Source of the DNA: Actinomycetota bacterium | GTDB taxonomy: Bacteria > Actinomycetota > JAHEXW01 > JAGVPG01 | Direction of reading: 5' to 3' | DNA: 64,000 bases | Assembly (NCBI GenBank): GCA_020052375.1 | Contig: JAGVPG010000009.1 | Location: 30,192 to 94,191, forward strand | Shown: positions 5,325-61,247 of the stretch, in pieces | Position numbering within the stretch: position 1 is the first letter of the stretch | Layout of the letters: the number at the start of each line of letters is the position of its first letter | Made by a program: the position numbers and the translations under genes | Notes under the pieces: generated by a model | What the model was told of the DNA's origin: nothing | The model's input: the letters and a program-made list of their open reading frames with translations, nothing else | Databases searched by the model: none

Positions 5325-6056
5325 ATGGATAAGGATGAAATCCTGGCTGAGATGCAACGGACAGCTAAAGAGAACGGTGGGAAGCCACTTGGCAAAAGTC
5401 GATTTGAGAACGTTACAGGCATAAACGAATATGTATGGTTAAAATATTGGTCTCGGTTTAGTGATCTACAGCGGGAGGCGGGTTTTAAGCCAAATCGACT
5501 ACAAAGTGCTTACAATGATGACTATTTATGTGAAAAAATCGTAGGCCTTATGCGAGAACTAAAGAAATTTCCTACAACAAATGAGATACGTACCAAAGCT
5601 TTAAATGACTCAGAATTTCCACACTTGGCAACATTTCAACGCCACGGAAGCAAGCAGCAACTCATCTCAAAGACGCTATCGTATTGTTTAGAGAAAACCA
5701 AGCACGAGGATATTGTCAAAATACTCGAACCATTAATTGACATGGAAAAAAGGGAAGAAACAGGAAATCTAGAAGCTTCAAAGCAAGAAGTAACATATGG
5801 CTACGTGTATCTAGTTAAAGGGCATCCAGGGGAATATAAAATAGGCCACACCACTCTTGTCGATAGAAGATTACCGGAACTTGGAGTGAAAGCTTCTATT
5901 AAGCCTAATTTGATACATGAGATCAAAACTGATGATCCGAAAGGTATAGAAGTATACTGGCACAAACGCTTTGAGAATAAGCGCATGCGAGGTGAGTGGT
6001 TCAGGTTGACCGCTGTCGATGTTAGAGCTTTCAAACGGTGGCGTAAGATATACTAA
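5325..6056 (+). CDS. GIY-YIG superfamily (T5orf172/Mug113-like) domain protein with unknown N-terminal domain
   Basis: C-terminal YGYVYLVKGHPGEYKIGHTTLVDRRLPELG...EWFRLT fits the T5orf172-type GIY-YIG-like module. The N-terminal 150 aa are unrecognised. AT-rich. Confidence 0.5.
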   Translation: MDKDEILAEMQRTAKENGGKPLGKSRFENVTGINEYVWLKYWSRFSDLQREAGFKPNRLQSAYNDDYLCEKIVGLMRELKKFPTTNEIRTKALNDSEFPHLATFQRHGSKQQLISKTLSYCLEKTKHEDIVKILEPLIDMEKREETGNLEASKQEVTYGYVYLVKGHPGEYKIGHTTLVDRRLPELGVKASIKPNLIHEIKTDDPKGIEVYWHKRFENKRMRGEWFRLTAVDVRAFKRWRKIY

Positions 6057-6290
6057 AGTTGCACCATGTCGGCAGGTGTACCGATTTGCAGAAAAGATGT
6101 AGTGCTTTTTTCACGACATTGGGAGCTGGCCTTAGATCTGTGCGAGCATTTACCAGGTCTGTGAGGAAAACCTTTGGGTTATATGTAGAAAAGAGTCTTA
6201 CGAACGACCTGAGGTAATGTGAGTACAAATCAAGGACAGTTTCCAGGAGTGAAAAAAGCACACACCTCTTTGTATCACTCTTTAGTGCCA
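6057..6290 (-). repeat. dispersed ~230-nt repeat R1, copy A (minus orientation relative to copy B at 36817-37045)
   Basis: The reverse complement of 6105-6250 aligns at ~85% with 36865-37000 (e.g. GTCCTTGATTTGTACTCACATTACCTCAGGTCGTTCGTAAGACTCTTTTCTAC...TTCCTCACAGACCTGGTAAATGCTCGCA). The element's boundaries are approximate. Confidence 0.7.
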
Positions 6291-32068: not shown

Positions 32069-32969
32069 AAGCAAGACTCAAAAGATAAAAAGAACGAACA
32101 TCCTACAGCAAGCGGTCATCCTCATGATCGCTCTTCTTTTGGTATCCGTTAGTCTGGTCATCCCGGAAAAGCATGTTCTGGCCCAATCGGAATCCGAGGT
32201 CAAGTCTGAGATCGAAGGTATAGACCGCAAGCTTGAGGAAGCGACGAGTCAGTATGACAGCTTGATCGCCGATATCGCAGCGGTCGACAGAGAGATATCG
32301 GGGATCGACACCGAGCGCGACGACTTAAACAGGCAATTGGTGGAGTTGTCGGATACGATCAATAAACGTCTGGCCGATGTCTACAAATACGGCGACGTCA
32401 GCATGTTCGAGGTGCTTGTCGGCAGCAAGACAGTCGAAGACCTGACCGACCGTCTTGCTCTTCTACGGCGGATCACATATCAAGATTTCCAGCTGCTTGA
32501 AAGCGTCAAGCAAAAACGGGTGCTGCTTGATGCGAAAGCGGATGAGCTCAAAGCGAAGAGGCAGGAAAGAAACCGCCTTCTGGCGGACCTTGAAGCTCAA
32601 AAGCTGAGCATACAGCTGGATCTAAAAGACCGGACGAACACGCTCGAGAATATCCAGGCGAACTCGTCATCGTCTGACCAGGCGTCCGATTCCGCCTCGA
32701 CCCCGGTCCAGCGGCCTAATCTCACGCGAAGCGAGCAAGGGATCGCTACCTGGTATGAGTTTACGGGCGGTATGACAGCCGCTCATAATTCACTACCGCT
32801 CGGCACGATGGTAAGGGTGACAAGTCTTAGAGACGGTCGCGAAGTCTGGGTGGAGATCGTGGACCGCGGTATTCAGGGCTCGGCCATAATCGATCTCGAA
32901 CGCGCAGCTTTCGCCAGGATAGGGGACCCGGATTTTGACGGCATCTGTCCGGTGCTTGTGGAATGGTAA
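32055..32969 (+). CDS. RlpA-like DPBB domain protein with coiled-coil region (paralog of preceding gene)
   Basis: C-terminal [44 protein letters not shown]; central heptad-rich coiled coil. Confidence 0.7.
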
Positions 32970-32971
32970 AA

Positions 32972-33006
32972 GAGCTGGTAGCTAGTAGCTTGTAGCTTGT
33001 AGTGGG
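32972..33006 (+). repeat. heptamer repeat family D (TAGCWWG)n
   Basis: GGTAGCTAGTAGCTTGTAGCTTGTAGTGGGTAGG. Related runs at 14941-14975, 18493-18512, 53321-53336 and 61207-61236. Confidence 0.55.
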
Positions 33007-33022
33007 TAGGAAGCGGGTAATT

Positions 33023-33898
33023 GTGACAAGAGAGAAGATCGTACATCCGTCCATAACGAAAGAGATACTTAGAAGATATGATATCAGGCTTACCAAACGG
33101 TTCGGGCAGCATTTCCTTATAGACGAGAATATCCTTAACAAAGAAGTGCAGTCGGCCGGGATCGGTAGTGAAGACCTGGTGATCGAGGTCGGTGCGGGTA
33201 TAGGCACACTCACCCAGGCACTGGCGGAAAAGGCCGGTAAGGTGATCGCCGTCGAATACGATACCCGCTTCTTCGACGTCCTTAAAGATACACTCTCCGG
33301 CTACGATAATGTCGAGATCGTACGTGCCGATGCGCTTGAAGTCGATTTCGACCGTCTGATCAAAGACAAAGACACGGCATTGTTCGTGGCGAACCTTCCC
33401 TACAATATAGCAACGCAAGTCATCAGTATCCTTTTAGAACAGACAAAGAAGATCAAGTCGATGGTAGTCATGGTCCAGAAAGAGGTGGCTGACAGGATAA
33501 CGGCCTCTCCGGGGACGAAAGAATACGGATTCTTTACGATAAGGACGGCGTTTTTCGCGGATGTCTCGCATATCTCAGTCGTTCCAAGAACGGTCTTTTT
33601 CCCTCCGCCCAATGTGGATTCCAGCATCTTAAGGGTAGTCAGGAAACCTGATATTCACGATATAACAAGTATAAAAGATGACCTTTTCGGCTTTATAAAG
33701 ATCTTCTTCAATGAACGGAGGAAGACAATGGGGGCGGTCATATCCCGGCGCTTCAAAGACATCTACGGAGAAGAAAACCGGCAAAGAGTGACGCAAGAAC
33801 TCACGTCTTTGGGGTTGGAAAGATCGGTCCGGGCGGAGGCCCTAACATATGAACAGTTTTTCAGACTATTCTGTTCGTTACGGTTGCGACAAACTTGA
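33023..33898 (+). CDS. rsmA: 16S rRNA (adenine1518/1519-N6)-dimethyltransferase
   Basis: TKEILRRYDIRLTKRFGQHFLID, VIEVGAGIGTLT, NLPYNI. Start chosen at GTG 33023 by alignment to KsgA N-termini; the track ORF opens at 33002 inside the heptamer repeats. Confidence 0.85.
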   Translation: MTREKIVHPSITKEILRRYDIRLTKRFGQHFLIDENILNKEVQSAGIGSEDLVIEVGAGIGTLTQALAEKAGKVIAVEYDTRFFDVLKDTLSGYDNVEIVRADALEVDFDRLIKDKDTALFVANLPYNIATQVISILLEQTKKIKSMVVMVQKEVADRITASPGTKEYGFFTIRTAFFADVSHISVVPRTVFFPPPNVDSSILRVVRKPDIHDITSIKDDLFGFIKIFFNERRKTMGAVISRRFKDIYGEENRQRVTQELTSLGLERSVRAEALTYEQFFRLFCSLRLRQT

Positions 33899-35998: not shown

Positions 35999-36484
35999 AT
36001 GAAGATCACAGCAGTTTCTATGAGGGTAGTTGACCGGGAGAAGGTAAAGGCCTTCGCATCGATCACGATAGATGACGAATTCGTCGTCCATGACTTGAGG
36101 ATCATCGAAGGGCAGAAGGGACTGTTTGTCGCCATGCCTAGCCGTAAACTCCCGAACGGCGAGTTTAGGGATGTGGCTCATCCGATAAAGCCGGAAGTGC
36201 GAGAGATGATCCAGGGTATAGTCCTGGATGAGTACGAGAAGAGGAAAGCATCACCCGAAGCATATGCGGAAGAGCGCCCGGTCAAAAAACCGGAAGCGCC
36301 GCCGGCCGAAAAACCGGAAGCGCCGCCGGCCGAAAAACCGGAAGCGCCGCCGGCCGAAAAACCGGCTGAAGCACCGGTCGAAGAAGCGAAGGCGGAACCG
36401 GAACCGGCACCGGCACCTGAAGAACCAGCTAAGGAAGCGACCGCCGAACCGGCCGAGGCGACAGCCGACAAAGACCAACAATAG
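35999..36484 (+). CDS. spoVG: SpoVG with C-terminal (KPEAPPAE)x3 Pro/Ala/Glu-rich extension
   Basis: [50 protein letters not shown]...; a 24-nt unit repeated three times at 36286-36357. Confidence 0.85.
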
Positions 36485-36596
36485 TAACACCACATATTTA
36501 GCAGTCAGGACGGATCTTTATGACAAGATGTTCTGGCTGCTATTTGTATTCAAGTGTTCCATGGACTATTGACTATAAACTATCCAATGTTCTTAC

Positions 36597-36671
36597 TGGG
36601 GCGTGGTGAAGTGGTAACACAGCGGATTTTGGTTCCGCCATTCGGAGGTTCGAATCCTCCCGCCCCAGCCA
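36597..36671 (+). tRNA. tRNA-Gln (anticodon UUG)
   Basis: TGGGGCGTGGTGAAGTGGTAACACAGCGGATTTTGGTTCCGC...GGTTCGAATCCTCCCGCCCCAGCCA. Confidence 0.85.
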
Positions 36672-36785
36672 TCTAAAAGTGTGTGCCTGGGTTAGGTTGA
36701 AGTAAATCTTCTCGCTAAAGATATCACGCTCGAAGAATTCTTCAACCTCCCCAGGCACTGTATGTATATATGGGGTATCGCTGCG

Positions 36786-36808
36786 GATTCTCACCGTCCA
36801 AGTCTGTC
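36786..36808 (+). repeat. repeat family C (GATTCTCACCGTCCAAGTCTGT)
   Basis: Related copies at 42040-42069 and 43171-43200. Confidence 0.6.
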
Positions 36809-36816
36809 GATGGCCG

Positions 36817-37045
36817 TTAAAAAGTGAGTCCTCGCAGGGGAATATGTTTAAAGTCATACTCCTGGTCGCCGTCCTTGATTTTGCTCTCATTTCCTACAGG
36901 TCGTTCGTAAGACTCTTTTTTACTCTTATACTGAAGGTCTTCCTCACAGACCTGGTAAATACTCGCAATATCTAAGGTCGGCTCCCCTATGGAGCATGAC
37001 TTAAACTATATCCTCCTGCTCGGACAATGCACGTTGTTTATTCAA
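36817..37045 (+). repeat. dispersed ~230-nt repeat R1, copy B
   Basis: Begins with the family-A motif (TTAAAAAGTGAGTCCTCGCA). The core aligns with the reverse complement of 6105-6250. Ends with ...TCCTGCTCGGACAATGCACGTTGTTTATT, which is also seen at 41840-41885. Confidence 0.7.
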
Positions 37046-37071
37046 CGAAAATCTTACAGGATGGGCGCCGC

Positions 37072-37094
37072 GGTTCGAATCCTCCCGCCCAGCA
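37072..37094 (+). repeat. partial duplicate of tRNA-Gln 3' end (att-like)
   Basis: GGTTCGAATCCTCCCGCCCAGCA versus the tRNA 3' end GGTTCGAATCCTCCCGCCCCAGCCA (one deletion). It lies 400 bp downstream of the intact tRNA. Confidence 0.7.
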
Positions 37095-37271
37095 AGGTCA
37101 GACAGGGTGTCAAGAGGATTGGCCCCCTTTATTTATAGAAATATCTAACAAACCATCGCGAAACATAGACAAAACCCATGAGGTTCACAAATCTAATTCC
37201 TTGTATCGGTAGATATTAAAGAAAGGGGGCTATATTCTCTTGAGTGCTATAATTATTCCAAGGAGGACAGC

Positions 37272-39245
37272 TTGCCTGAAGATAGTCGACACACCAATCC
37301 TACCGCATCTGAATTACTAAGAAAGGCAGATAGTAAACATATTTCAACTGCTTTTAGCCGGATCGATAAGATGAGTCCTTGTCCTATCGGTCAAGGTGGT
37401 GGCTGCTGCCGAGTCTGTTTCATGGGACCATGCCGTCTGTCTAGTCAAAAAATGCCTAGAAAAGTCGGTATCTGTGGGGCGACTCTAGATACTATAGTCG
37501 CCAGAAACTTAGCCCGGTCTATCGCTGCCGGATGTTCAGCTCACGCTGCTCATGGTCTTGACCTAGCACTGACTCTGCAAGCTGTAGCCACTGGGAAAGC
37601 CAAGGACTATCAGATAAAGGATTCAGGCAAGCTTAAGGTATTAGCCAAACAGTATAGTATCAAGACCGATGGACTCTCCGATAATGAAATCGCACTTAAG
37701 GTGGCTGATGCGGCTATTTCCAGTTATGGTCAACAAGATACCGAACTGAGCCTCGTGTCCCAACCTCCCAAAAAACGTCTTGAGCTGTGGAAGTCGTTAG
37801 GTATCTTCCCACGCGGCATCCACCAGGAAATAGTCGAAACCTGTCACCAGACCAGTATCGGTGTTAATCAGGACCCTGAACATATACTAAAACAGGCCTT
37901 AAGAGTCTCTCTGGCTGATGGTTGGGGCAGCTCCATGATGGCAACTCAGATATCAGATGTTCTGTTCGGGACACCCCAGCCGAAACTAGCTCAAACAAAC
38001 CTTGGAGTATTGAAACAAGATGAGGTAAATATTGTCGTTCATGGTCACACACCGACTCTAGCCGAAGCAATAGTCAACGCAGTGAGTGATGACGGACTTA
38101 AAAAACTAGCCAAATCTAAAGGTGCAAAAGGAATCAACTTGGTCGGCATATGCTGCACCTCAAATGAAATCTTAATGCGGCATGGTATTTCACCTGTGGG
38201 TGGTTTTCTCGATCAGGAACTGGCTATTCTAACAGGTTCAGTTGAGGCCATGGTTGTAGACATTCAATGCGTCATGCAGGCCTTATCACCGCTTGTCAAG
38301 CATTTTCACACTAAACTAATAACGACTTCACCACAAGCTAAGATTGAAGATGCAACACACGTGGAGTTTAACATCTCTGAAGCCTCTGGGACAGCCAAGC
38401 AAATCGTAAAATTAGCTATCGACAACTTCCCTAATCGAAAGAGTACTGCCATACCAGAAATGACCAGCGACCTTGTGGCCGGTTTCTCACATGAATATAT
38501 AAGATATATGCTGGGTGGAAAATACCGCGCCTCATTCGGTCCATTAAATGATGCTATCATTACAAGCTGTATCCAGGGAGTTGTCGGAGTAGTCGGCTGT
38601 AATAATCCCAGAGTTTCACAAAAAAACAGCCACACCTACGTCGTTAAAGAGTTAATCCGCAATAATATTTTGGTCGTCCAAACGGGATGTGCCGCTTTGA
38701 ACAGTGCTAAGCATGACCTATTGATACCGGAAGCTTTACACGATGCTGGACCATTCTTAAGAGAAGCATGCAAGACCATTGGTATGCCACCTGTTCTACA
38801 TCTTGGTTCCTGTGTTGATAATTCGAGGATATTGACCATCCTGACCAACATCGTTAATAAAGGTGGGCTTGGAGAAGATATAAATGATCTACCGGTGGCA
38901 GCAGTTGTCCCCGAATGGATGAGTGAAAAATCCCTAGCCATCGGTACATACTTCGCTGCATCCGGAGTTCCGGTGTTTTTTGGTTCAGGTTCACCTGTAT
39001 CTGATAGCCATCTTGTATCCAGTCTTATAAACAGCAACTGGGAACAACAGCTTGGAGGCAAGATCAGGTTTGAGTCTGATCCCAGAAAAATAGTTAAAGA
39101 CGTGATAGAGCACATCAACAAGAAACGTCAGATTCTTGGTATCTATGGTGTCGGCGGCCGAAAACAAAGCCCAGCCGAAATCGAAAGGATGAGAGCATTA
39201 AGACAATGGCAAATGAGGTTAAGGAGTTCGCTTCAGCAGTTATAA
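37272..39245 (+). CDS. cooS: anaerobic Ni-dependent carbon monoxide dehydrogenase catalytic subunit (copy 2, lower GC)
   Basis: HISTAFSRIDKMSPCPIGQGGGCCRVCFMGPCRL...GICGA; 657 aa; collinear with copy 1. Confidence 0.85.
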   Translation: MPEDSRHTNPTASELLRKADSKHISTAFSRIDKMSPCPIGQGGGCCRVCFMGPCRLSSQKMPRKVGICGATLDTIVARNLARSIAAGCSAHAAHGLDLALTLQAVATGKAKDYQIKDSGKLKVLAKQYSIKTDGLSDNEIALKVADAAISSYGQQDTELSLVSQPPKKRLELWKSLGIFPRGIHQEIVETCHQTSIGVNQDPEHILKQALRVSLADGWGSSMMATQISDVLFGTPQPKLAQTNLGVLKQDEVNIVVHGHTPTLAEAIVNAVSDDGLKKLAKSKGAKGINLVGICCTSNEILMRHGISPVGGFLDQELAILTGSVEAMVVDIQCVMQALSPLVKHFHTKLITTSPQAKIEDATHVEFNISEASGTAKQIVKLAIDNFPNRKSTAIPEMTSDLVAGFSHEYIRYMLGGKYRASFGPLNDAIITSCIQGVVGVVGCNNPRVSQKNSHTYVVKELIRNNILVVQTGCAALNSAKHDLLIPEALHDAGPFLREACKTIGMPPVLHLGSCVDNSRILTILTNIVNKGGLGEDINDLPVAAVVPEWMSEKSLAIGTYFAASGVPVFFGSGSPVSDSHLVSSLINSNWEQQLGGKIRFESDPRKIVKDVIEHINKKRQILGIYGVGGRKQSPAEIERMRALRQWQMRLRSSLQQL

Positions 39246-40081
39246 AGGAGGCGCCAAAGCTCGTCTCCAAAGCATCGGGCAAGCTTCAAGCCGCTATCAA
39301 GAAAAAAGGAGCTGAAGGACCTGTATGTTGTACTCCATCAGACTATCTTCCGGTCATCTATGGCATTACCGGAAAGAAGATCTCTATACTATCCGATCTC
39401 AACCAGATTATCGTACAAGCACGTGACCTCCTCGCCGAACCACCTGGCAACAACCATTGGCTTCCTTATCTGGGTCACGCTCTGGATGCTGGAATAGCTT
39501 CCCTATTTGCCGAAGAGATAATCGAAGCTGTTGATATCAATCCAGATTCCAATTCATCAGATGGTTTGTGGCTAGGCGCTCCGTCAGACGACATAGTTCA
39601 GACATGCGGATTGCAGATTATCAACGGAGCTATGAAAGGATTCGCCACCTTGATTGGAGCTGCTCCCTCAACTGACAAAGCAAAGCAAATTGCCCAAGAG
39701 CTAAAAGAAAAAGAACTCTACATTTTCCTAGTCGGTCAGGACAAAGAGGAATCTATGGGCAGGCAGCTTAGGCAGGCAGGAATAAACCTCGGCTGGGATG
39801 AGCATATAATTCCTTTTGGTCGTCAAACCTCAAGCATAGTCCATGTCTTTGGTTTTTTAACTAGAATAGCTATAATTCACGGTAAGATAAAACCCGGGGA
39901 TTTAAAGGGGATATATGCTTTTCTCAAAGAAAAGGTGTTTGGCTTTTTTATGATCCTCGACCAGGTAGATAATGAAAAATATGCCATGGCCGCCGCTGCA
40001 AACAGTTTCGGGTTTTTGACCATGGCTCAGGAATACGTTCCCCAGCTACTACCCATTCATACTCTACATAGATTGCGCTAA
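39206..40081 (+). CDS. hypothetical protein, CooS-associated; possibly CdhB-like (CODH epsilon-like)
   Basis: Overlaps the cooS-2 stop. Weak by-eye resemblance to archaeal CdhB (AVIKEAPKLVSKASGKL ~ PEVAAKLISKAKRP; AAANSFGFL ~ NATMSFGNL). Confidence 0.35.
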   Translation: MANEVKEFASAVIKEAPKLVSKASGKLQAAIKKKGAEGPVCCTPSDYLPVIYGITGKKISILSDLNQIIVQARDLLAEPPGNNHWLPYLGHALDAGIASLFAEEIIEAVDINPDSNSSDGLWLGAPSDDIVQTCGLQIINGAMKGFATLIGAAPSTDKAKQIAQELKEKELYIFLVGQDKEESMGRQLRQAGINLGWDEHIIPFGRQTSSIVHVFGFLTRIAIIHGKIKPGDLKGIYAFLKEKVFGFFMILDQVDNEKYAMAAAANSFGFLTMAQEYVPQLLPIHTLHRLR

Positions 40082-40164
40082 TTTCTCCTAGTGTTAAACT
40101 TTCTAAGCAGCCATGCTTCAATAATGAGATGGACAATCTGTACATACGGTAGCAAGGGGGGAAT

Positions 40165-41622
40165 GTGAAAATACCCAAGTGCATGAGCACACAGCACCCG
40201 GACAACGTAAATCCTCCTTTCTTCGCCAGAGATACCGAGCTTGGCGGGGAAGATGAAGTTCAGGAAGCGTACTATGCTTTCTCTAATTTAGGCTGCGACG
40301 AGCAGATGTGGGATTATGAAGGCAAGGAAGTCGATGCTTTTGTAGTCAAGAAGCTTCTTAACAAGTACGAATCGTTTTTCAAGCAGCAACGGTTAGGAAA
40401 AGACATATTTCTGACATTGCGAGTGCCAAATCCTACTGTAGAGAGAACAGAAGCAAAAGTGCTGCTGGAAACCCTTGAGAGCATACCGAGGTCATATGAC
40501 GTCGCTAAACTGTTTTATGGAGATGATATCCCGCCCATTTTCGAGGTCATTTTGCCGATGACAGCTTCATATAAATGCGTGGACAGGATCTACCAGTACT
40601 ACCGGGAATTTGTAGTCGGCAAACAAACTAGACCTTTTAGAAACGGCGACCTTACAATCGCCGAATGGATCGGCGAGTTCAAACCGGCAAGGATCAATGT
40701 GATTCCTCTTTTTGAAGATATGGCTCATATGCTTGCCGCTGCCGATATCGTCGGAGACTATCTTCGCGGAAAAGAAATGAAATACCAGCGAGTCTTTCTC
40801 GCCCGTTCAGACCCTGCTATGAACTACGGAATGATCAGTGCCGTCCTTCTTAACAAGATAGCACTTCAACGATTATATAAGTTCTCAAATAGTTCAGGCG
40901 TTCGGATTTATCCCATCGTGGGCGTCGGGTCAGCGCCGTTTAGGGGAAATCTAAGACCGTCTACTGTTGATAGAGTCTCCGCAGAATACCCGAGTGCGCA
41001 CACTTTTACTGTGCAGTCAGCATTCAAGTATGACAATCCGCCGAACGTCGTCGAACAAGCAGTGAAACGTTTGTCGACTAGGGAGAGCGGCGCGCCGCAC
41101 GAGGTCGATGAAGGTAGAGCTCTTGAGATCATCGATAAGTATTGCCGGGAATATAAACGCCAGATTATCGGATTGGCTCCGGTTATCAACCGCATAGCCC
41201 GACACATACCGAGCAGGCGTAAGCGAAAACTGCATATCGGTCTCTTTGGGTACGCTAGGAATATCGAAGGCGTCTCTTTACCCCGAGCAATCGGCTTCAC
41301 CGCTTCATTGTACTCGATAGGGCTGCCGCCCGAGATACTCGGCCTTAACGCGCTGGACGACGATGACCTCAAATATATACGCACCGCATACACGAATTTC
41401 GATATCGATCTTAAGGATGCACTCCAGTATCTCGACGTGAACTGCAATCTCGTTCCTAAGAGTCTGTTAAAGCGTATTGATACAATGGGTATTTCATTCA
41501 AGCCTGATTCATCTCATGTTACTGTGACATCACGCATCGTCTCACTGCTTCAAGAAAACCGGACAGAGGATCTTCCCGAACATATTTTACAGGCGGCAAA
41601 CATTAGAAGGTTTCTAGGCTAG
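40165..41622 (+). CDS. ppcA: archaeal-type phosphoenolpyruvate carboxylase
   Basis: N-terminal MKIPKCMSTQHPDNVNPPFFAR is the archaeal-type PEPC hallmark; ~485 aa. Confidence 0.75.
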   Translation: MKIPKCMSTQHPDNVNPPFFARDTELGGEDEVQEAYYAFSNLGCDEQMWDYEGKEVDAFVVKKLLNKYESFFKQQRLGKDIFLTLRVPNPTVERTEAKVLLETLESIPRSYDVAKLFYGDDIPPIFEVILPMTASYKCVDRIYQYYREFVVGKQTRPFRNGDLTIAEWIGEFKPARINVIPLFEDMAHMLAAADIVGDYLRGKEMKYQRVFLARSDPAMNYGMISAVLLNKIALQRLYKFSNSSGVRIYPIVGVGSAPFRGNLRPSTVDRVSAEYPSAHTFTVQSAFKYDNPPNVVEQAVKRLSTRESGAPHEVDEGRALEIIDKYCREYKRQIIGLAPVINRIARHIPSRRKRKLHIGLFGYARNIEGVSLPRAIGFTASLYSIGLPPEILGLNALDDDDLKYIRTAYTNFDIDLKDALQYLDVNCNLVPKSLLKRIDTMGISFKPDSSHVTVTSRIVSLLQENRTEDLPEHILQAANIRRFLG

Positions 41623-41764
41623 CTCATAAGGTCTCTGCAAACATCGTGATCAGACGTTATACTAAGAAAGGCCAGTCGTTCGACCCACTCGGGCCAAGTG
41701 AAGTTTCCCTATTACGGCTTCTTTATGTATTTAGCAATCTTCTCAAACTTAACAAGGGAGCCAT

Positions 41765-41890
41765 CTAAAAAGTGAGTGCTCGCAGTCGGCGCGAACACCA
41801 TTAAATGTGAGTGCTGCGCGTTAGCACAGATGTATAAAAGCATTGTTCGCGTCTCCTGCTTGCACAATGCACATTTGTTATTAAGAGCGT
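41765..41890 (+). repeat. internally shortened copy of repeat R1 (both conserved ends present)
   Basis: 5' end CTAAAAAGTGAGTGCTCGCA, 3' end TCTCCTGCTTGCACAATGCACATTTGTTATT. The intervening sequence is shorter than in copy B. Confidence 0.55.
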
Positions 41891-42039
41891 AAAGCGGAAA
41901 TCGTAAAGCGAAAAGGAAGACTTGGTAGGTGCGGATCTTAAAGTCGGATGGTTTAGATCTTCTTTCCGCTTTCCGTTCTTTTTCACCTTATTCACTCTGT
42001 TTACCGTTCACCACTTCACCATCTCCTACCTGCCATCTG

Positions 42040-42069
42040 CTGATCAAGATCCTCACCGTCCAGGTTTGC
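42040..42069 (+). repeat. repeat family C copy upstream of the REC-GGDEF gene
   Basis: GATCAAGATCCTCACCGTCCAGGTTTGCAG. Confidence 0.6.
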
Positions 42070-42177
42070 AGGGGAGTTTGAGAACTGGGTATAAGCGTTT
42101 CTTTACACTTCACGGTTGGCTATAATTGGCTTGAAGAGCTACCGGTCTTCAATGGATGTGTAGTCTGGAGCTGTGAT

Positions 42178-43065
42178 ATGAGAGATAAGTCTATAAATGT
42201 CTTACTGATCGAAGATAGCCCGGCTCATGTAGTCATCATCAGAGAAATGCTCAAAGCAAAGAAAGACATCGAATTCAACATTGTGCACGTTAAAGATCTT
42301 TCTGAAGGGTTGAACTATCTTACCTCGGGCGATACAGACATTGTTTTGCTGGATCTAGGCTTGCCGGATAGCACCGGTATCGAGACATTCGACAAGATAC
42401 ATGCACAAGATAGAGATATACCCATTGTTGTAATAACAGCCAATGCCGACGATGAGCTGGCGATAGAAGCCGTGCAAAAGGGAGCTCAGGACTATCTAGT
42501 CAAAGAACAAACAGACTCTGACATGCTGATACGCTCCGTCCGGTACGCTATCGAGCGGAACAGGATGTATTCAGTTCTACGCGGGCTTGTGCTTATAGAC
42601 GATCTGACCGGTCTGTACAATCGAAGAGGCTTTATTGCTCTTGGCAAGCGAAATATCAAACTGGCGGACCGGACAAAGAAACGCCTACTCTTCGGCATAG
42701 CTGACCTGGATGGATTGAAGTTGATCAACGACAGTTTCGGTCATAAAGAGGGAGACCGGGCACTACTGGAGACGGTGCAGATACTGAAAGAGACTTTTAG
42801 GGAAACGGATATCATCGCTCGAATGGGCGGTGATGAGTTTGCGATCATCGCCATAGAGGCCTCGATTGAAACCGCCAACGTCGTTACCGCCAGATTGAAG
42901 GCGAATGTCGATAGACATAATTTGAAAAAGAACCCGGACCGCCGATTATCTATCAGCATAGGTGTGACATTCTATGAGCCCGGGTCGCATAGTTCGATCG
43001 ATGAGCTTATTTCAAAAGCGGATGAATTGATGTATATGGAGAAAAACGCTAAAAGAGAACCCTAA
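42178..43065 (+). CDS. response regulator receiver + GGDEF diguanylate cyclase
   Basis: REC (VLLIEDSPAHVVIIREML..., DLGLPDSTG); GGDEF (RMGGDEFAI, DSFGHKEGD). Confidence 0.85.
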   Translation: MRDKSINVLLIEDSPAHVVIIREMLKAKKDIEFNIVHVKDLSEGLNYLTSGDTDIVLLDLGLPDSTGIETFDKIHAQDRDIPIVVITANADDELAIEAVQKGAQDYLVKEQTDSDMLIRSVRYAIERNRMYSVLRGLVLIDDLTGLYNRRGFIALGKRNIKLADRTKKRLLFGIADLDGLKLINDSFGHKEGDRALLETVQILKETFRETDIIARMGGDEFAIIAIEASIETANVVTARLKANVDRHNLKKNPDRRLSISIGVTFYEPGSHSSIDELISKADELMYMEKNAKREP

Positions 43066-43170
43066 CCCAGTTTCCCCTCCTTTTTGTTGGTTACTCGCTA
43101 ATTATCTTGGAGGAACGATGGCTCTTTTACAACAATCAGGCCTTTTTACAGAAGTTTAAAGGCACAACCG

Positions 43171-43200
43171 CCGATCAAGATTCTCACCGTCCAAGTCTGT
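43171..43200 (+). repeat. repeat family C copy downstream of the REC-GGDEF gene
   Basis: CCGATCAAGATTCTCACCGTCCAAGTCTGT. Confidence 0.6.
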
Positions 43201-43217
43201 ACTCCAAGAATGCAGAC

Positions 43218-43733
43218 TCAGTAACCTCGCAAAACAGACATGGCCCCGCTTAGCAACAATATAGATAAACCTAACGCAAAATTCACCTTGACCAAGTTTA
43301 GAGACACTTTTTGAAGTGATGCCTTTTCAGGATCGGTTTCTGTCCGCATAATCGTGGGAGTCAAGACCAAGCTCCTATAGAAATGAATCGAGACCATGGT
43401 GAAAACCAAGATCAGCTTCAGGATTAAGATCATCATCCAGTCGTTTTCAAGAAATCCGATTTCTGAAGGCGGCTTACCTAACCAAGCCAATGTAAACCCG
43501 GTGACAACGAGGGTTATTATGCAGTAGTTTGCTAGCGAAGTGAATCGTTTTGAGATTTCTCCTATAAGCTTGCCTGACTCCGCTCCCAAAACATCTTTGG
43601 ATGATGGTAATGCGATAAACAGGATAAATGTTATTCCACCGATCCAGATGGTTGTTGCGATAAGATGTATCCAGTAAACGGTTATTACTATTATCTCTTT
43701 GATATCTTCCTCCTTGTGATCTAAGAAAGGCAA
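43218..43733 (-). CDS. small integral membrane protein (4 predicted TM), paralogous to 45137-45658
   Basis: Hydrophobic segments. Shared pattern with the paralog (LLAAHNIAAVLCVAAPFY... versus ITVYWIHLIATTIWIGGITF...). Family not assigned. Confidence 0.55.
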   Translation of the reverse strand: MPFLDHKEEDIKEIIVITVYWIHLIATTIWIGGITFILFIALPSSKDVLGAESGKLIGEISKRFTSLANYCIITLVVTGFTLAWLGKPPSEIGFLENDWMMILILKLILVFTMVSIHFYRSLVLTPTIMRTETDPEKASLQKVSLNLVKVNFALGLSILLLSGAMSVLRGY

Positions 43734-43760
43734 CTGATCGCGTATGATCCGAATCCTTAA

Positions 43761-43880
43761 TTACTCATCTGTCTTAACAGGCGGGATGCAACCGCAACCG
43801 CAGGTACTCTTTTTCTGGACCTTGATTTCGGGCTTCTTCTCTTCGGGATTTTCTTTCTCTTCCTTGGCATCTTTCGCCAT
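43761..43880 (-). CDS. unannotated 39-aa peptide with C-terminal TCGCGC motif
   Basis: Minus-strand ATG at 43880 preceded by AGGTGGTGA (6-nt spacing). Translation MAKDAKEEKENPEEKKPEIKVQKKSTCGCGCIPPVKTDE. Below the ORF-track length cutoff. Confidence 0.45.
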   Translation of the reverse strand: MAKDAKEEKENPEEKKPEIKVQKKSTCGCGCIPPVKTDE

Positions 43881-43957
43881 TTATATCACCACCTTCTGTA
43901 TAAGTGTATGCATATCTTCTTATAATCATAGGCAAAAAAATTAGCTTTTCATAGCTT

Positions 43958-44323
43958 TCAAGTTTTTCCCGTACTTGCTTGTTTGCCCAAACAGCCGCAA
44001 GTGCAGATACGGTTAAGTCTTTGACGGCATTTTTCAAGGGCTTCCCGGTTTAGTGAGTAGTAGATCCAGTACCCCTGCCTTTCGTCCTTTACGAGCCCCG
44101 CGCTTCTAAGCACCCGCAAATGCTGGGATACCGCGGACTGGGTGATCTTCAATGCTTCAGCCAAGGCATTAACATTCATAGACTCTTCTTTTAGGAGTTC
44201 GATGATCTCTATTCTCTTATCAACAGAGAGTAGTTTAAATAGGTCAGCTGCTTCTTTCATGCGTTCACCTCGGTAAGAATATAAGTATATACTAATATAC
44301 TTTAACATACTTTGAGTTGTCAA
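43958..44323 (-). CDS. ArsR/SmtB-family transcriptional regulator with C-terminal CTCGC motif
   Basis: wHTH NVNALAEALKITQSAVSQHLRVLRSAGLV; C-terminal RICTCGCLGK. Confidence 0.8.
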   Translation of the reverse strand: MTTQSMLKYISIYLYSYRGERMKEAADLFKLLSVDKRIEIIELLKEESMNVNALAEALKITQSAVSQHLRVLRSAGLVKDERQGYWIYYSLNREALEKCRQRLNRICTCGCLGKQASTGKT

Positions 44324-44425
44324 GCACTTTTTAGATTAGGCGATTCGGGGACTTGACAAATCTCGTGCATTGATATACTATTCAAGTAATCAATAAGATA
44401 ATAGAATAGTTGATAAGGAGGATAG

Positions 44426-45100
44426 ATGAATCGAGACAGACAGTTCAAAGATACTGTTTATGAGCAGCTTTCAAGAATAGGGAAGGCTGTATCAAGTCCA
44501 AAAAGACTTGAGCTTTTAGATCTTCTTTGTCAGGGACCGAAAAAAGTCGAGGTGCTGGCCAAGGAAACAGATCTATCAGTCGCAAATACATCTCAACATC
44601 TTCAAATACTTCGGGGCGCCAGTTTGGTGGAGAGCCGTAAAGAGGGTCTTTATGTTGTATATAGAATTGCTGATTCCGATGTCTGTGTTTTTTTTCGAAG
44701 CATGCGGATGCTTGCGGGAAGAAGGCTCGCGGAACTTGAACTTACAGTACAGCGCTTTCTTAAAGAACGGGAGGGGCTTGAAACTGTTGACCGGGAAGAA
44801 CTTCTCGAACGTGTCCGGCATAAGAGTGTGACAGTCATCGATGTCAGACCCCCGGAGGAGTATGAGGCCGGCCACATCCCGGGAGCTCTATCGATCCCGC
44901 TAAAGAAACTCCAGTCAAGGTTGGCCGAAATACCCAAAGACCGGCAAATCGTCGCATATTGCCGGGGACCTTACTGTGTACTGGCAGTCAAAGCCGTTGA
45001 TATCCTTCGCTCACAAGGATACAAAGCGATACGGCTGGAAGACGGTGTACCCGACTGGCGCGCACGAGGTTTCAAAGTGGCAACCGGAAGTAATAAGTAA
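44426..45100 (+). CDS. ArsR-family HTH fused to rhodanese domain
   Basis: HTH (VEVLAKETDLSVANTSQHLQILRGASLV). Rhodanese (VIDVRPPEEYEAGHIPGALSIP...VAYCRGPYC, active-site Cys). Confidence 0.8.
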   Translation: MNRDRQFKDTVYEQLSRIGKAVSSPKRLELLDLLCQGPKKVEVLAKETDLSVANTSQHLQILRGASLVESRKEGLYVVYRIADSDVCVFFRSMRMLAGRRLAELELTVQRFLKEREGLETVDREELLERVRHKSVTVIDVRPPEEYEAGHIPGALSIPLKKLQSRLAEIPKDRQIVAYCRGPYCVLAVKAVDILRSQGYKAIRLEDGVPDWRARGFKVATGSNK

Positions 45101-45136
45101 TCGGATTCTTAGATCACCCTTAAAAGGAGACTTAAA

Positions 45137-45658
45137 ATGGAAAAAACATTGTATATGCTTCTATTGGCCGCCCACAACATCGCGGCTGTCCTATGTGTGG
45201 CCGCTCCTTTTTACATGTCACGCATCTCAAATGCGCGGTCAAAGTATGACAAGCGGGTCATATATGATATGGACCGCCTCATGGAGGATGTTATAACCAC
45301 ACAACCTCAGATCTGCTGGGCTGCTCTTATCACGCTGGTTATTACGGGATCCGGGTTCCCGTTTGTTCACTATCTTTTTTACGGTGCGTTCAAGGAATTG
45401 ACTATGATCGGTTGGATAGCGCTAGCAGTAAAGCTGTCTGCAATTGGTGGTATGGCGTTTATACTTTACTGGGGCACGTTTATCTACAATCCCAGATTAA
45501 AAGACTTATTCGCTAAGTTTGAACCGGATAGCAAGCCGGATCCCGACATTGAACAAGAGTTTTTTGCCTTGCGCAAACTAAGGAAGTTCTGGTGTGAACG
45601 CTGCTGGAATCTCGGTTTGATCGTTCTTGTGGCTACTGCGATCCTAAGATGGAGTTAA
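45137..45658 (+). CDS. small integral membrane protein (4 TM), paralog of 43218-43733
   Basis: Hydropathy by eye; paralogy described above. Confidence 0.55.
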   Translation: MEKTLYMLLLAAHNIAAVLCVAAPFYMSRISNARSKYDKRVIYDMDRLMEDVITTQPQICWAALITLVITGSGFPFVHYLFYGAFKELTMIGWIALAVKLSAIGGMAFILYWGTFIYNPRLKDLFAKFEPDSKPDPDIEQEFFALRKLRKFWCERCWNLGLIVLVATAILRWS

Positions 45659-45662
45659 GACT

Positions 45663-45986
45663 TTGAAACTGGCGATTGTAATTTCTAATGATGATCCTGA
45701 AACCATCTGGAATGCATTCCGCTTTGCAAATTTTTCTATTAGTAAAAGCGAAAAAGTGAGAGTGTTTCTATTAGGAAAAGGTGTGGACTACGAGGGCCTT
45801 TCGACAGAGCGATTCGATCTGCTCGAGCAAGCCAAAAAGTTCGTAGAATCAGAAAATGCGGAAATACTTGCCTGTGGTACGTGTCTTAAGATCAGACATC
45901 AGGAAAGTACCGGACTGTGCCCGGTTTCTACTATGGATGATCTGTATGAGCTAGTGAAGGAAAGTGACAAGATCCTGACTTTTTAA
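45663..45986 (+). CDS. DsrE/DsrF/TusD-like sulfur-relay fold protein
   Basis: 107 aa, MKLAIVISNDDPETIWNAFRFANFSI...ACGTCL; resembles the YchN/DsrE family. Confidence 0.45.
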   Translation: MKLAIVISNDDPETIWNAFRFANFSISKSEKVRVFLLGKGVDYEGLSTERFDLLEQAKKFVESENAEILACGTCLKIRHQESTGLCPVSTMDDLYELVKESDKILTF

Positions 45987-46005
45987 GAAATTATCTAAAG
46001 TTATC

Positions 46006-46040
46006 TTGACGTTGTCCGAATTAGTAACTATCGTTACTAA
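46006..46040 (+). promoter_or_regulatory. promoter (-35 TTGACG) with perfect 8-4-8 palindrome operator TTAGTAAC-TATC-GTTACTAA
   Basis: Read directly. The palindrome 46021-46040 overlaps the predicted -10. RBS AGGAGAA and ATG at 46057. Confidence 0.5.
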
Positions 46041-46056
46041 TTGTAGACCAGGAGAA

Positions 46057-47325
46057 ATGGTGAATATCAGAAATATTTCGGACATTAACGGCACTTTACA
46101 TGAACAGAAAACAAACGGGATGCAATGGACTCTCGAACCACGCGTCGAGAAGACTCTCGACGCTCTGCCTTTCAATGTCTTGCTGTTGGATCAGGATCAC
46201 AAGATCGTCTGGGCGAATAAGGCGGTATCGCAGATACTGGGCCTCCGCACCTCGGCTATAGTCGGTAATCAGTGCTTCAAGATCGTACACGGCAGAGAAA
46301 AAGTGCTTGATAACTGTCCGATGGAAGAAGCGATCCGTATTGGCCGGCCTGTCGAATGTGAGTTGCTGGATGAAGAATCGGGCCGGCTGACACATTCGGC
46401 TGTATACCCGACAAAGCTCATGACCGGCAACGGGCAAAAGATATACCTGCACGCCACGAGGGATATAACCGAAAGACGGATCGATGTCGATCAAGCTTGC
46501 GAAGGCGAGACGATCCTGCAGAAGTTATGCGCCGGCGCGCCGCTCATCGTGCGAGAAGAAGACTTTTCACGAGTTAAATCATATATGGACGCACTCCGGA
46601 GCAAGGGCGTCAGCGACCTCATCGCGTACTTTAAAGAGCACCCCGAAGTAGTCGCGCATTGCGCGTCGATGGTGGAAGTACTGAACGTGAACAAACCGAA
46701 CCTGGCTTCGGATAAAAAGAACGACCATGATCTGTTCATGGTAGACCTCGGCGGTTTTATCTCACGCGATTCGTACGGGACTTTCTGGGAGGAACTGGTC
46801 GCCATATCTGAAGGGCAAGACCGGTTCGAGGGCGAGACCAGCACGCTGTCACTTACCGGCGAGCAACGCGATATACTGGTCAAATGGGCTGTCTTGGACG
46901 GTCATGAAAACACGTACGCGCGAGTCCTTGTGTCTATAATCGATATCACGGGTATAAAGCAGGCGCAAAGGTCCCTAACGCTCGAACACCGCCATATGCT
47001 GTCATTATTCGATAGAGTCACCGATAAGGTATACTTCAGCGATCCGGAGACGGACGAGATCCTGTATATCAATGATGTATTGAGAGAGAGATTCGGCGAC
47101 GTCGTAGGGCAGAAGTGTTACCGCGCGTTTCAGGGCAAAGAAGCTCCATGCGAGGCATGCACAAACCCCGAGATCTTCGACAAGAACCTGTATATGCCGG
47201 TCGTGCGGGAACTCAAGAACCCGCTGGACGGCCGCTGGTATAGATGTGTCTCAAAAGCCGTCAGATGGCCGGACGGCAGACTGGTCAGATTCGCCACCGC
47301 TACGGATATCACAGACGAAAAATAA
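46057..47325 (+). CDS. PAS-domain sensor protein (no recognisable output domain; C-terminal C-x10-C-x2-C)
   Basis: LPFNVLLLDQDHKIVWANKAVSQILGL (PAS); a second PAS-like region; C-terminal CYRAFQGKEAPCEAC. Confidence 0.65.
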   Translation: MVNIRNISDINGTLHEQKTNGMQWTLEPRVEKTLDALPFNVLLLDQDHKIVWANKAVSQILGLRTSAIVGNQCFKIVHGREKVLDNCPMEEAIRIGRPVECELLDEESGRLTHSAVYPTKLMTGNGQKIYLHATRDITERRIDVDQACEGETILQKLCAGAPLIVREEDFSRVKSYMDALRSKGVSDLIAYFKEHPEVVAHCASMVEVLNVNKPNLASDKKNDHDLFMVDLGGFISRDSYGTFWEELVAISEGQDRFEGETSTLSLTGEQRDILVKWAVLDGHENTYARVLVSIIDITGIKQAQRSLTLEHRHMLSLFDRVTDKVYFSDPETDEILYINDVLRERFGDVVGQKCYRAFQGKEAPCEACTNPEIFDKNLYMPVVRELKNPLDGRWYRCVSKAVRWPDGRLVRFATATDITDEK

Positions 47326-47352
47326 GACAGAACGAAAAATCCGCATTTCTTG

Positions 47353-47411
47353 TTGACACTGTTCCCGCATCGATGTATTATCAGTATTATCAGAATAATC
47401 AGTAACTACTG
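47353..47411 (+). promoter_or_regulatory. sigma70-type promoter (TTGACA-17-TATTAT) followed by triple direct repeat (T/A)ATTATCAG
   Basis: TTGACA 47353-47358, TATTAT 47376-47381, then repeats TATTATCAG/TATTATCAG/AATAATCAG/TAACTACTG at 47376-47411. AAGGAG RBS and ATG at 47428. Confidence 0.55.
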
Positions 47412-47427
47412 TCTTAAGGAGTGTGCT

Positions 47428-47667
47428 ATGAAATCAATAAACGGGTGCTGTAGCGTTGACTCCGTCGTCTCGGTCGACGCCAGGGGGCAGATGGTCCTGC
47501 CGAAAGACCTTAGGGACAAGGCAGGCATAAAGGAAGGAGACAAGCTGGCGCTTGTGAGCTGGCAAAAAGATGGCAAGATCTGCTGCATAATGATGCTCAA
47601 AGCGGATGAGTTCTCGGATATGGTAAAAGAAGTGTTGGGCCCTATGTTGAAGGAGGTAAAGAAATGA
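47428..47667 (+). CDS. small SpoVT/AbrB-like swapped-hairpin protein with two Cys pairs, first gene of arsM operon
   Basis: VVSVDARGQMVLPKDLRDKAGIKEGDKLALV; CC at residues 7-8 and ICCIMM. Strong SD. 4-nt overlap with arsM. Confidence 0.6.
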   Translation: MKSINGCCSVDSVVSVDARGQMVLPKDLRDKAGIKEGDKLALVSWQKDGKICCIMMLKADEFSDMVKEVLGPMLKEVKK

Positions 47668-48497
47668 AAGACGAAGATATAAGGAAAAGCGTACGTCAAG
47701 GCTATGGGAGCATTGCGAAAGATCAAGGTTCATGTTGCGGCCCACAGGCCGGGTCATGCTGCGGTCCACAGACGGTTTCGCAGGAAACAATAACCAAAAA
47801 CATCGGATACAGGGACGAAGATCTGCAAGGTGTCCCGGAAGGCGCGGATCTCGGTCTCGGCTGCGGTAATCCCATAGCTCTGGCGTCTCTAAAAGAAGGA
47901 GAGACGGTCGTCGATCTGGGTTCAGGCGCGGGCCTGGACTGCTTTATAGCAGCAAGGCAGGTGGGAAAGAGCGGTAAAGTGATAGGGATAGATATGACCG
48001 TAGAGATGATCGAAAGAGCACGAGAGAACGCGACAAAAGGCGGGTTTGATAATGTCGAATTCAGATTGGGCGAGATCGAGAACCTTCCCGTCGCGGATGA
48101 TGCCGCCGATATCATCATCTCGAACTGTGTCATCAACCTGTCCCCGGACAAAGATAGGGTATTCGAGGAATCTTACAGAGTCCTGAAGCCGGGAGGAAGG
48201 CTGATGGTATCGGATATAGTCTTGATGAAAGAGCTGCCGGCACGGATCAGACAATCGATCCAGGCGTATATCGGGTGCCTCTCGGGAGCGGACATGAAAA
48301 GCGAATACCTGCGGAAGATCGAACACACGGGCTTTCAGGACGTCCGGATCATGGAAGAAAATGTTTTTCCGGTAGATCTGATGCAGAACGATCCGACCGC
48401 ACAAGCCCTCTATAAGGAACTTGCGGTCACACCGGAGGAACTGGAAAAACTGCAAGACGCCATAGTCAGCATCAGGGTGTCTGCCAAGAAACCATAG
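47664..48497 (+). CDS. arsM: arsenite S-adenosylmethionine methyltransferase
   Basis: N-terminal CCGPQAGSCCGPQ; VVDLGSGAGLDCFIAARQVG; NCVINLSPDK; conserved Cys (CLSG). Confidence 0.8.
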   Translation: MKDEDIRKSVRQGYGSIAKDQGSCCGPQAGSCCGPQTVSQETITKNIGYRDEDLQGVPEGADLGLGCGNPIALASLKEGETVVDLGSGAGLDCFIAARQVGKSGKVIGIDMTVEMIERARENATKGGFDNVEFRLGEIENLPVADDAADIIISNCVINLSPDKDRVFEESYRVLKPGGRLMVSDIVLMKELPARIRQSIQAYIGCLSGADMKSEYLRKIEHTGFQDVRIMEENVFPVDLMQNDPTAQALYKELAVTPEELEKLQDAIVSIRVSAKKP

Positions 48498-48584
48498 GTC
48501 TTATCCCTTTGTAACATTTATTACTTAAGAGTTCGTCCGAAAGACCGAAGTATATATATGTAAGATGAATGAGAGGTTGATCGG

Positions 48585-50492: not shown

Positions 50493-50627
50493 CCGGTAAG
50501 AAGTGAGTATCTCAAGATTGTAACGATTATTACTTGATTATCTAAAAAACAACTGCTATATGTAAGATAATCTATTTTGTTATTTGCAGTTTATGTAGGT
50601 CTGTTTATATAGATGAAAGAAGAATGA

Positions 50628-61206: not shown

Positions 61207-61236
61207 GAGCTAGTAGCAAGTAGCTAGTAGCTTGTA
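61207..61236 (+). repeat. heptamer repeat family D
   Basis: GAGCTAGTAGCAAGTAGCTAGTAGCTTGTAG. Confidence 0.55.
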
Positions 61237-61247
61237 GAAAAGCATAT

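Follow-up and report, generated by a model that had tools for sequence, protein, structure and literature searches.

A second copy of a tRNA-Gln 3' end, probably a scar of site-specific integration, inside a 9.3-kb low-GC island

Introduction

How did the 3' end of a tRNA gene come to lie a second time, on its own, 400 bp downstream of that gene? The question is raised by a tRNA-Gln locus in the 64,000-nt stretch of DNA analysed here (hereafter the window). A first-pass annotation, made from the letters of the sequence, had called the arrangement attL/attR-like, and had seen in the interval between the two copies either a miniature or decayed integrative element or the proximal end of a larger island. 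CIMEs are integrated elements that have decayed to att-flanked remnants, and tandem accretion at a single tRNA gene has also been described (PMC5704250). Tandem islands at ssrA in Dehalococcoides are the subject of another study (PMC3146451). The repeat, the interval, the island behind it and the corresponding locus in relatives are considered below, together with the other ways in which a tRNA end might be duplicated.

Results

The tRNA-Gln gene and its orphan 3' end

The tRNA-Gln(UUG) gene, whose presence had been reported in the earlier annotation, lies at 36597..36671 on the + strand, where ARAGORN and the Rfam tRNA model (64 bits) agree. Its final 25 nt (36647-36671, GGTTCGAATCCTCCCGCCCCAGCCA) form the first copy of the direct repeat. 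After an interval of 400 bp (36672-37071), an orphan copy of the segment that reaches from the T loop to the 3' end is found at 37072..37094 on the + strand (GGTTCGAATCCTCCCGCCCAGCA), a candidate att-type direct repeat that is slightly decayed in this strain. The two copies agree exactly over 19 bases (36647-65 corresponding to 37072-90), after which the orphan differs by two 1-nt deletions. None of 100 shuffles matched the repeat at three mismatches or fewer, and the duplication that the annotation had reported was thereby borne out. A pattern search of the window revealed no third copy.

Placed on the Rfam structure line, the repeat block starts with the final two bases of the T stem's 5' strand, continues through the T loop and the T stem's 3' strand, and takes in the 3' acceptor strand with part of the GCCA. 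The onset of identity is sharp, 2 nt before the T loop, and identity continues through to the 3' end; upstream of the onset there is no tRNA similarity. Repeats flanking tRNA genes in Klebsiella are mostly 20-25 bp long and frequently start at the T loop (bioRxiv 10.1101/2020.11.02.365908). By analogy, the onset, the 3' reach and the length of the orphan match the common, T-loop type of tRNA att block.

Two further assemblies carry the same arrangement. L105 (JGI Ga0214473) is a metagenome contig found by a pattern scan with the core of the repeat family R1 (see below), and is collinear with window positions 36477-39339 at 97.7% identity. L113 (ENA ERZ27256953), found via a look-up of the PAS protein, is collinear with 36933-41657 and 43216-50535. 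Both are independent assemblies of the same species as the window. In each of them the orphan, at the equivalent place, is a 23-nt exact copy (GGTTCGAATCCTCCCGCCCCAGC) followed by AAAGG. Because L105 and L113 carry this cleaner copy, the repeat is real and ancestral to the three strains, and the window's copy has lost single bases later, within homopolymer runs. The first-pass annotation had allowed for an artefact, in which case the 23-mer would be absent from re-sequenced reads; with the arrangement present in three independent assemblies (window, L105 and L113) and in none of the 100 shuffles, a chance match or an assembly artefact is hardly conceivable.

It had also been envisaged that the 23-mer belongs to a degenerate tRNA pseudogene, and more generally the orphan could be what is left of a second tRNA-Gln gene, a tandem duplicate or an internally deleted one, integration not being involved. 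Tandem tRNA-Gln genes do exist in other organisms (L095 for instance). Moreover, the hexamer TGGGCG (37060-37065), located 6 nt upstream of the repeat and kept in L105 and L113, resembles the 5' acceptor strand of the tRNA (TGGGGCG), and can pair with the CGCCCA of the repeat to give a minihelix-like hairpin. However, we estimate that such a 6-mer would occur at this place by chance with a probability of roughly 1-5%. Neither ARAGORN nor the Rfam tRNA model, at E values up to 10, detected a second tRNA in 36500-37300, and no relative has two tRNA-Gln genes after spoVG. Identity of 23/23 in the 3' block, dropping to the random level immediately upstream, has the look of a recombination junction rather than of gradual decay. 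A second-gene origin is quite unlikely on these grounds.

Content and divergence of the 400-bp interval

The gene-less proximal module between the repeats, E_small (36672..37071, + strand), has a GC content of 45.5%. Two mechanical open reading frames overlap it (36573-36890 on the - strand and 37027-37212 on the + strand), and both are broken by indels in the other strain, in keeping with the annotation's description of the interval as devoid of ORFs. Hairpin repeats take up nearly the whole of the 400 bp, and the interval as a whole folds far better than its shuffles (z = -6.7). Directly after the tRNA-Gln gene comes a 76-nt hairpin, H1 (36683..36758, + strand), defined by folding and by alignment with L105 and L097. 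The stem of H1 is kept between strains, the differences being located in unpaired positions, and L097, which comes from a third sample, has the L105 allele. It is followed by motif M (GATTCTCACCGTCCAAGTCTGT; 36786..36807, + strand; 0 matches expected by chance), of which further copies occur at 42048 and 43179, every copy being on the + strand.

The remainder is dominated by copy B of R1, a long-hairpin repeat of 223 nt (36818..37040, + strand, folding z-score -6), which the annotation had correctly placed inside the interval. Copy A lies at 6050..6285 on the - strand, between a MUG113/T5orf172 gene and tRNA-Glu. The annotation had proposed a search for further copies, and these were found in L106 and L107, so that, counting the window and one metagenome of the same species, R1 is present at no fewer than four loci. 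Copy B shares 82% identity with window positions 6121-6250 (- strand), 89% with L107 and 80% with L106. The contexts of the L106 and L107 copies are unrelated, and the latter begins 5 nt past a stop codon. Every copy folds as a hairpin of about 200 nt; in the consensus hairpin, 12 of the 77 pairs show compensatory changes. The flanks of R1 contain no recognisable target-site duplication, and copies other than B (A in the window, L106 and L107) have no long flanking duplications. L106 was considered as the orthologous site of window position 18.6 kb with a swapped hairpin core; this candidate was rejected, and because the genes flanking L106 are without match in the window, the ends that L106 and the window share are repeat sequence themselves.

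R1, H1 and the “frame” hairpins resemble MITE/REP-like repeats in being multi-copy, imperfect hairpins of about 200 nt that occur in either orientation just downstream of genes. They differ from them in having no identified target-site duplication or associated transposase, and in a conservation that peaks at the centre of the hairpin and not at its termini. R1 is probably a MITE/REP-like palindromic repeat that colonised the interval, and it is uninformative on how the tRNA end was duplicated. Rather than an integral part of an integrative element, it is an independent hairpin family found at unrelated loci. Because the 400 bp consist almost wholly of hairpin repeats, and R1 occurs at unrelated loci as well, little or nothing of an original element is recognisable. 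Searches with the interval matched only the tRNA among plasmids and nothing among phages. Scans of viral contigs with the R1 core and with the element/repeat junction gave no match, and the scan with the tRNA-end/element junction gave a single one, in a coding region and irrelevant. No Rfam family matched R1, H1 or the repeat, even at E = 10.

Comparison of the window with L105 revealed a marked heterogeneity of divergence along the locus. Only 1 difference in 195 positions (0.5%) was found in the spacer plus tRNA, against 34 in 400 (8.5%) for the interval 36672-37071, 4 in 177 (2.3%) from the repeat to the start of the carbon monoxide dehydrogenase (CODH) gene, and 22 in 1974 for the CODH coding sequence, 11 of which are at third codon positions (1.7%). 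The excess in the interval was statistically significant as determined by a Fisher test, both relative to the non-coding flanks (p = 8e-5) and relative to third positions (p = 3e-7). The outermost differences, at 36676 and 37068, are located just within the two repeats. Because the excess is confined between the repeats, the interval has a deeper history than its flanks, which fits a separate module and is what one would expect if it had been exchanged or acquired separately. Gene conversion among R1 copies may have contributed to its divergence. Between the same strains, a short intergenic spot at 32950-33030 is likewise hypervariable, and high divergence is not unique to the interval.

A low-GC island behind the tRNA gene

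The interval is the proximal end of a larger low-GC block of 9.3 kb, which extends from 36672 to about 45979, between tRNA-Gln and a PAS-sensor gene. GC content is 45.1-45.5% in 36672-46000, versus 50.8-50.9% on either side, the 400-bp interval being equally low; such a shift is the composition expected of a tRNA-linked genomic island. Upstream of tRNA-Gln is a conserved block made of ksgA, veg, ispE, an NTP-transferase gene and spoVG (35999-36484). Beyond the island are the PAS sensor, an AbrB/MazE-like gene, a methyltransferase gene, two PAS-GAF-HD-GYP paralogues, a 269-aa ORF, glmU (53376) and prs (54764).

Past the orphan repeat, the distal cargo module covers 8.9 kb (37095..45979, + strand, GC 45.1%). 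According to Pfam scans it encodes the CODH catalytic subunit (37272-39245), a CODH_A_N protein, an archaeal-type PEP carboxylase, a response regulator with a GGDEF domain, a CopD-like protein (- strand), an ArsR-rhodanese protein, a 173-aa ORF and a DsrE-like protein. One part of it varies between strains: in L113, 44 nt stand in place of a 1.56-kb segment (41658..43215, + strand) that holds a frame-type hairpin, motif M, the response regulator-GGDEF gene and another motif M. In nine of the larger ORFs of the island, Pfam scans detected no integrase or recombinase domain, and among these ORFs the integrase gene that one would look for next to the att site of a tRNA-linked island is absent.

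The annotation had predicted a matching repeat at the far end of the island, at 41.6-42.2 kb or at 53.3 kb. None is there, and the island ends at about 45.98 kb. A pattern search, blastn-short and a Hamming scan of 37.1-56 kb for a tRNA-derived repeat gave 15/25 as the best match, which is the shuffle level. A 12-mer at 41759 (AGCCATCTAAAA) was considered as a third copy of the tRNA 3' end and discarded, its frequency being about that expected by chance. A distal repeat of the tRNA end accordingly bounds the 400-bp module (37072-37094), but not the 9.3-kb island.

The right junction (45981..46039, + strand) is a conserved promoter/operator block of the PAS-sensor gene, whose true start is the GTG at 46060. 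Within this block lies the stop codon (45984-45986) of the DsrE-like gene, which is full length as judged by Pfam. A sequence resembling this junction, motif_a (ATTTATAGAAATATCTAA; 37131..37148, + strand), occurs at the other end of the cargo module, 36 nt past the orphan repeat. It shares 16 of 18 bases with the flank that follows tRNA-Gln in the relative L100 (z = 4.3, 0/300 shuffles). With at most one edit, AGAAATATCTAA has just two occurrences in the window (37136 and 45986), which flank the cargo block.

The proximity of the orphan to the CODH operon raises another possibility, namely that it is a functional tRNA-like hairpin in the operon leader, such as a selected signal for RNA processing or stability. 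The orphan precedes the CODH start codon by 178 nt, folds as a GC-rich hairpin, and has a 19-nt core that is identical in both alleles. However, zero changes in 19 nt are not significant at the rate of the interval (P about 0.2 by our own estimate), and in the window strain 1-nt deletions are eroding the repeat at its 3' end. The homologous CODH operon of L108 (79% protein identity) does not have such an element. This makes a role in the leader very improbable. The L108 operon sits in a recG/fakA context, its homology beginning only at window position 37245, and the notion that the repeat accompanies the CODH operon wherever it moves was dropped.

The locus in related lineages

In the nearest other lineages the SpoVG domain is 95-96% identical at the protein level, with only about 73% identity in DNA. 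To judge from the source labels of the nearest relatives, the organism appears to come from a lineage filed under Actinomycetota or Bacillota. In the two nearest ones, tRNA-Gln is followed by native genes within 30 bases. In L100, a segment starting 22 nt after tRNA-Gln (3617-3674) matches the right junction of the window (45981-46039) at 89.8% identity (E = 1.6e-15). The second case is formed by two contigs of the same sample (Logan SRR22808026): L104 ends in the tRNA and L115 begins with CGGAGGTTCGAATCCTCCCGCCCCAGCCA, and in the latter the tRNA end leads straight into the series methyltransferase, PAS, HD-GYP, 268-aa ORF, glmU and prs, the right-junction block again preceding the PAS gene. 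In the more distant L110, L112 and L001, tRNA-Gln is followed by sensor genes and then by glmU, and the island is absent. L101 has a different cargo, including a Y1 transposase and a P-type ATPase.

Because the two nearest lineages have native genes directly after the tRNA, the block from 36672 to about 45979 is, on sequence comparison, an insertion at the tRNA 3' end, in a locus that is variable among relatives. An insert that abuts the tRNA 3' end, together with relatives in which the site is empty, is the arrangement of a tRNA-linked island. The annotation's larger island is therefore real, as a low-GC block from 36672 to about 45979 missing from the nearest other lineages, and the empty sites that it had called for are those of L100 and L115, in genomes of about 73% DNA identity, the nearest in which they occur. 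Within the species, no empty site was seen for the island or for the 400-bp module. In six assemblies the contig breaks just after tRNA-Gln; these breaks were set aside as evidence of polymorphism, a tRNA shared by co-occurring species explaining them equally well.

The duplication could also be a by-product of events that involve neither an integrase nor an integrative element, in a spacer rich in repeats. By this we mean illegitimate or short-homology recombination, or replication slippage tied to the insertion of H1, M and R1. The interval is indeed made almost wholly of hairpin and repeat modules, similar repeats follow tRNA-Gln in the distant L112 where there is no island, and no integrase was found among the scanned ORFs. 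Yet the other copies of R1 (A in the window, L106 and L107) are not accompanied by long flanking duplications. Events of this kind would also have to coincide by chance with the canonical att sublocation of a tRNA gene and with the border of an island, one that sets in right at the tRNA end and that sister lineages lack. We consider such an origin unlikely.

Discussion

The explanation that we favour, and hold to be probable, is that the 23-nt repeat is an att-type direct repeat, the fossil of a site-specific recombination into the T-loop/3' end of tRNA-Gln. An incoming element would have brought, as its attP, a copy of the tRNA stretch between the T loop and the 3' end. Upon recombination with the tRNA-Gln gene, the copy of the element would complete the tRNA, and the displaced original 3' end would be left downstream as the orphan, the present 3' end of the tRNA being derived from the element. 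The outcome would be a 400-bp remnant and an 8.9-kb cargo module, which together make up the 9.3-kb island behind the tRNA. From the attL/attR-like reading of the first-pass annotation, a module bounded by repeats and an island behind the tRNA gene are observed; no integrase gene was found among the scanned ORFs, and an integrase-mediated origin is what we infer from the arrangement. Its two alternatives, a miniature or decayed element and the proximal end of an island, both fit the presence of the island, the divergence of the module and the absence of a pseudogene.

Because no integrase remains among the scanned island ORFs, the structure is most likely a fossil, at most a non-autonomous, CIME-like element, whose residual mobility, if any, would require an integrase provided in trans. 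That integrative elements use tRNA-Gln, at the anticodon-loop sublocation, is indicated by four viral contigs which carry a 3' fragment of tRNA-Gln without the full tRNA, the fragments starting at the anticodon loop.

Two orders of events are conceivable. By tandem accretion (model T), of the sort reported for CIME-IME tandems (PMC5704250), a cargo element would have integrated first and a second element would have entered the re-formed tRNA, the distal repeat having been lost later. Alternatively (model W), two insertions would have occurred into an L100-like ancestor, one of a small element at the tRNA gene and the other of the cargo, some 60 bp farther on at AGAAATATCTAA. Both models fit the arrangement. 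Model W needs no deletion and would account for the AGAAATATCTAA motif, and model T would account for the 35 nt after the orphan, which are unlike the L100/L110 flank (AAATMCTT...). The resemblance of motif_a to the flank of the empty site would be natural if the orphan represents the tRNA's original end, still accompanied by part of the old flank; the 18-mer could instead be a shared regulatory motif.

In several respects the locus resembles the tRNA islands of tyrosine integrases (of the P4 type and others). The insert starts exactly where the tRNA gene ends; included in the direct repeat of about 23 nt are the T loop, the 3' acceptor strand and a portion of the CCA; composition is atypical, the block is present or absent among related lineages, and the cargo combines metabolic and signalling genes. 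It differs from them in that no integrase gene was found among the Pfam-scanned ORFs, and in that the repeat is located 400 bp from the tRNA, with none at the distal end of the 9.3-kb island.

The likeness to CIMEs (PMC5704250) lies in the short gene-less stretch between a tRNA end and its repeat, here the tRNA end and the 23-nt repeat that flank 400 bp without conserved ORF, in its lack of genes for integration or transfer, and in its tandem position with a larger acquired block. The 400-bp module matches CIMEs in structure, but nothing recognisable of an ICE or an IME is left, so that any descent from either is putative, and the host is an uncultured lineage and not a streptococcus. CIMEs are kilobase-sized, and the 400-bp module is far smaller. 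As for tandem arrangements, the study of ssrA in Dehalococcoides reportedly found several acquired modules behind one small-RNA gene, parted by short direct repeats of its 3' end. The Dehalococcoides islands are reported to have a recognisable integrase and a repeat for each boundary, whereas here a single internal repeat survives.

Most likely, then, the feature is an integration scar of an ordinary kind at a tRNA hot spot, which calls for no new mechanism. It is mildly unusual in that the module between the repeats is very small, consists only of hairpins and diverges between alleles. Its interest is that it gives precise borders to a CODH, PEP-carboxylase and sulfur-handling block gained by an uncultured anaerobe, places the tRNA-Gln hot spot between spoVG and glmU, and provides a clear case of a remnant flanked by att repeats that measures just 400 bp. 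It may also be of use for studying how an island becomes fixed through loss of its integrase and its distal repeat. For annotation, this means that the orphan 23-mer is not to be labelled as a tRNA and that the island can be given borders.

A bolder interpretation, which we regard as rather improbable, is that the 400-bp module is itself a miniature non-autonomous integrative element, made only of hairpin modules between tRNA-Gln att repeats, which strains would continue to exchange by means of an integrase whose gene lies elsewhere. If so, it would be the integrative-element counterpart of a MITE, and the five-fold excess of divergence between the repeats would reflect independent acquisition, or allele replacement by site-specific recombination. 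Should the module be excised, the predicted junction would join the body of the tRNA to ...CCCCAGC-AAAGGTCAGAC.

A strain-variable cassette within the island

The island segment at 41658–43215 (1.56 kb) is absent from L113, another assembly of the same species, which carries 44 unrelated bases instead (L113 4730–4773). Among its contents are a "frame"-type hairpin and a response-regulator GGDEF gene, which motif M flanks on both sides, as direct repeats at 42048 and 43179. The sequence AGCCATCTAAAAAGTGAGTGC, at 41759, forms the opening of the segment and mirrors AGCCATCTAAAAGTGTGTGC, which is made of the tRNA-Gln end and the initial bases of the gene-less 400-bp module (36672–37071). On the strength of this likeness, it may be speculated that the 400-bp module could descend from a cassette of this type that would have lost its gene when two copies of M recombined.

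A probable family of palindromic repeats between genes

Three copies of the 15-mer AAGTGAGTSCTCGCA lie in the window (18586, 36822 and 41770, all on the + strand), versus 0.2 occurrences expected. Each copy stands at the start of a different long hairpin: at 36.8 kb this hairpin is the repeat R1, and those at 18.6 and 41.8 kb have other cores. In the metagenome contig L106 (2038–2277), the R1 core is joined to a right-hand segment known from 18.8 kb of the window. The hairpins opened by AAGTGAGTSCTCGCA look like members of one family of intergenic palindromes with a modular build.

Insertions and candidate insertions at tRNA genes

In L101, a contig from a relative whose SpoVG is 90% identical across the conserved N-terminal half (~52% of the query), the next gene after tRNA-Gln encodes a Y1 (IS200/IS605-type) transposase (L101 4260–5084), with GGCAGCTAAGGGGTCAGGTCTTGCCTTT repeated on its flanks. 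Beyond it lies cargo of an unrelated kind, with a P-type ATPase and a cytochrome c among its genes. The tRNA-Gln locus is a hot spot, where insertions differ by lineage.

[quoted passage not shown] By class, these fragments are anticodon-loop att-like sites, a different sublocation from that of the block in the window, which is of the T-loop type.

Within a tRNA cluster, a 1.6-kb stretch (4708–6331) separates tRNA-Lys from tRNA-Glu. It holds a small GIY-YIG gene (5011–5289), a MUG113/T5orf172 gene (5325–6056) that includes a homing-endonuclease-associated repeat, and R1 copy A (6050–6285, − strand). Its internal repeats pair 4750–4851 with 4896–5006, and 4861–4913 with 6420–6472. This stretch may be a further tRNA-gene insertion, besides the one at tRNA-Gln.

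Conserved and variable sequences elsewhere in the window

Ahead of the PAS-sensor gene, the promoter region (45999–46055) is ~90% conserved across lineages, as compared with L100 (3630–3720) and L115 (930–1010), the nearest lineages without the island, whereas their coding DNA is only ~73% identical. It contains the palindrome GTAACTATCGTTAC, present as a longer, expanded inverted repeat in L100 and L115, and is probably an operator for a regulator.

In the 3′ part of spoVG (36267–36362), 24-nt tandem repeats encode a C-terminal tail of PAEKPEAP-like units. Their copy number varies by strain, SpoVG being 161 aa long in the window and 149 aa in L097–L099, contigs of other strains; tails of other lengths are found in related species. 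The short spacer upstream of ksgA (32950–33030), composed of GTAGCT-like low-complexity repeats, is hypervariable among strains, and a 31-nt piece of it is found again at 61207–61237. Finally, a second, divergent paralogue of the CODH catalytic subunit lies at 16676–17902 (− strand), with ~66% DNA identity to the island copy.
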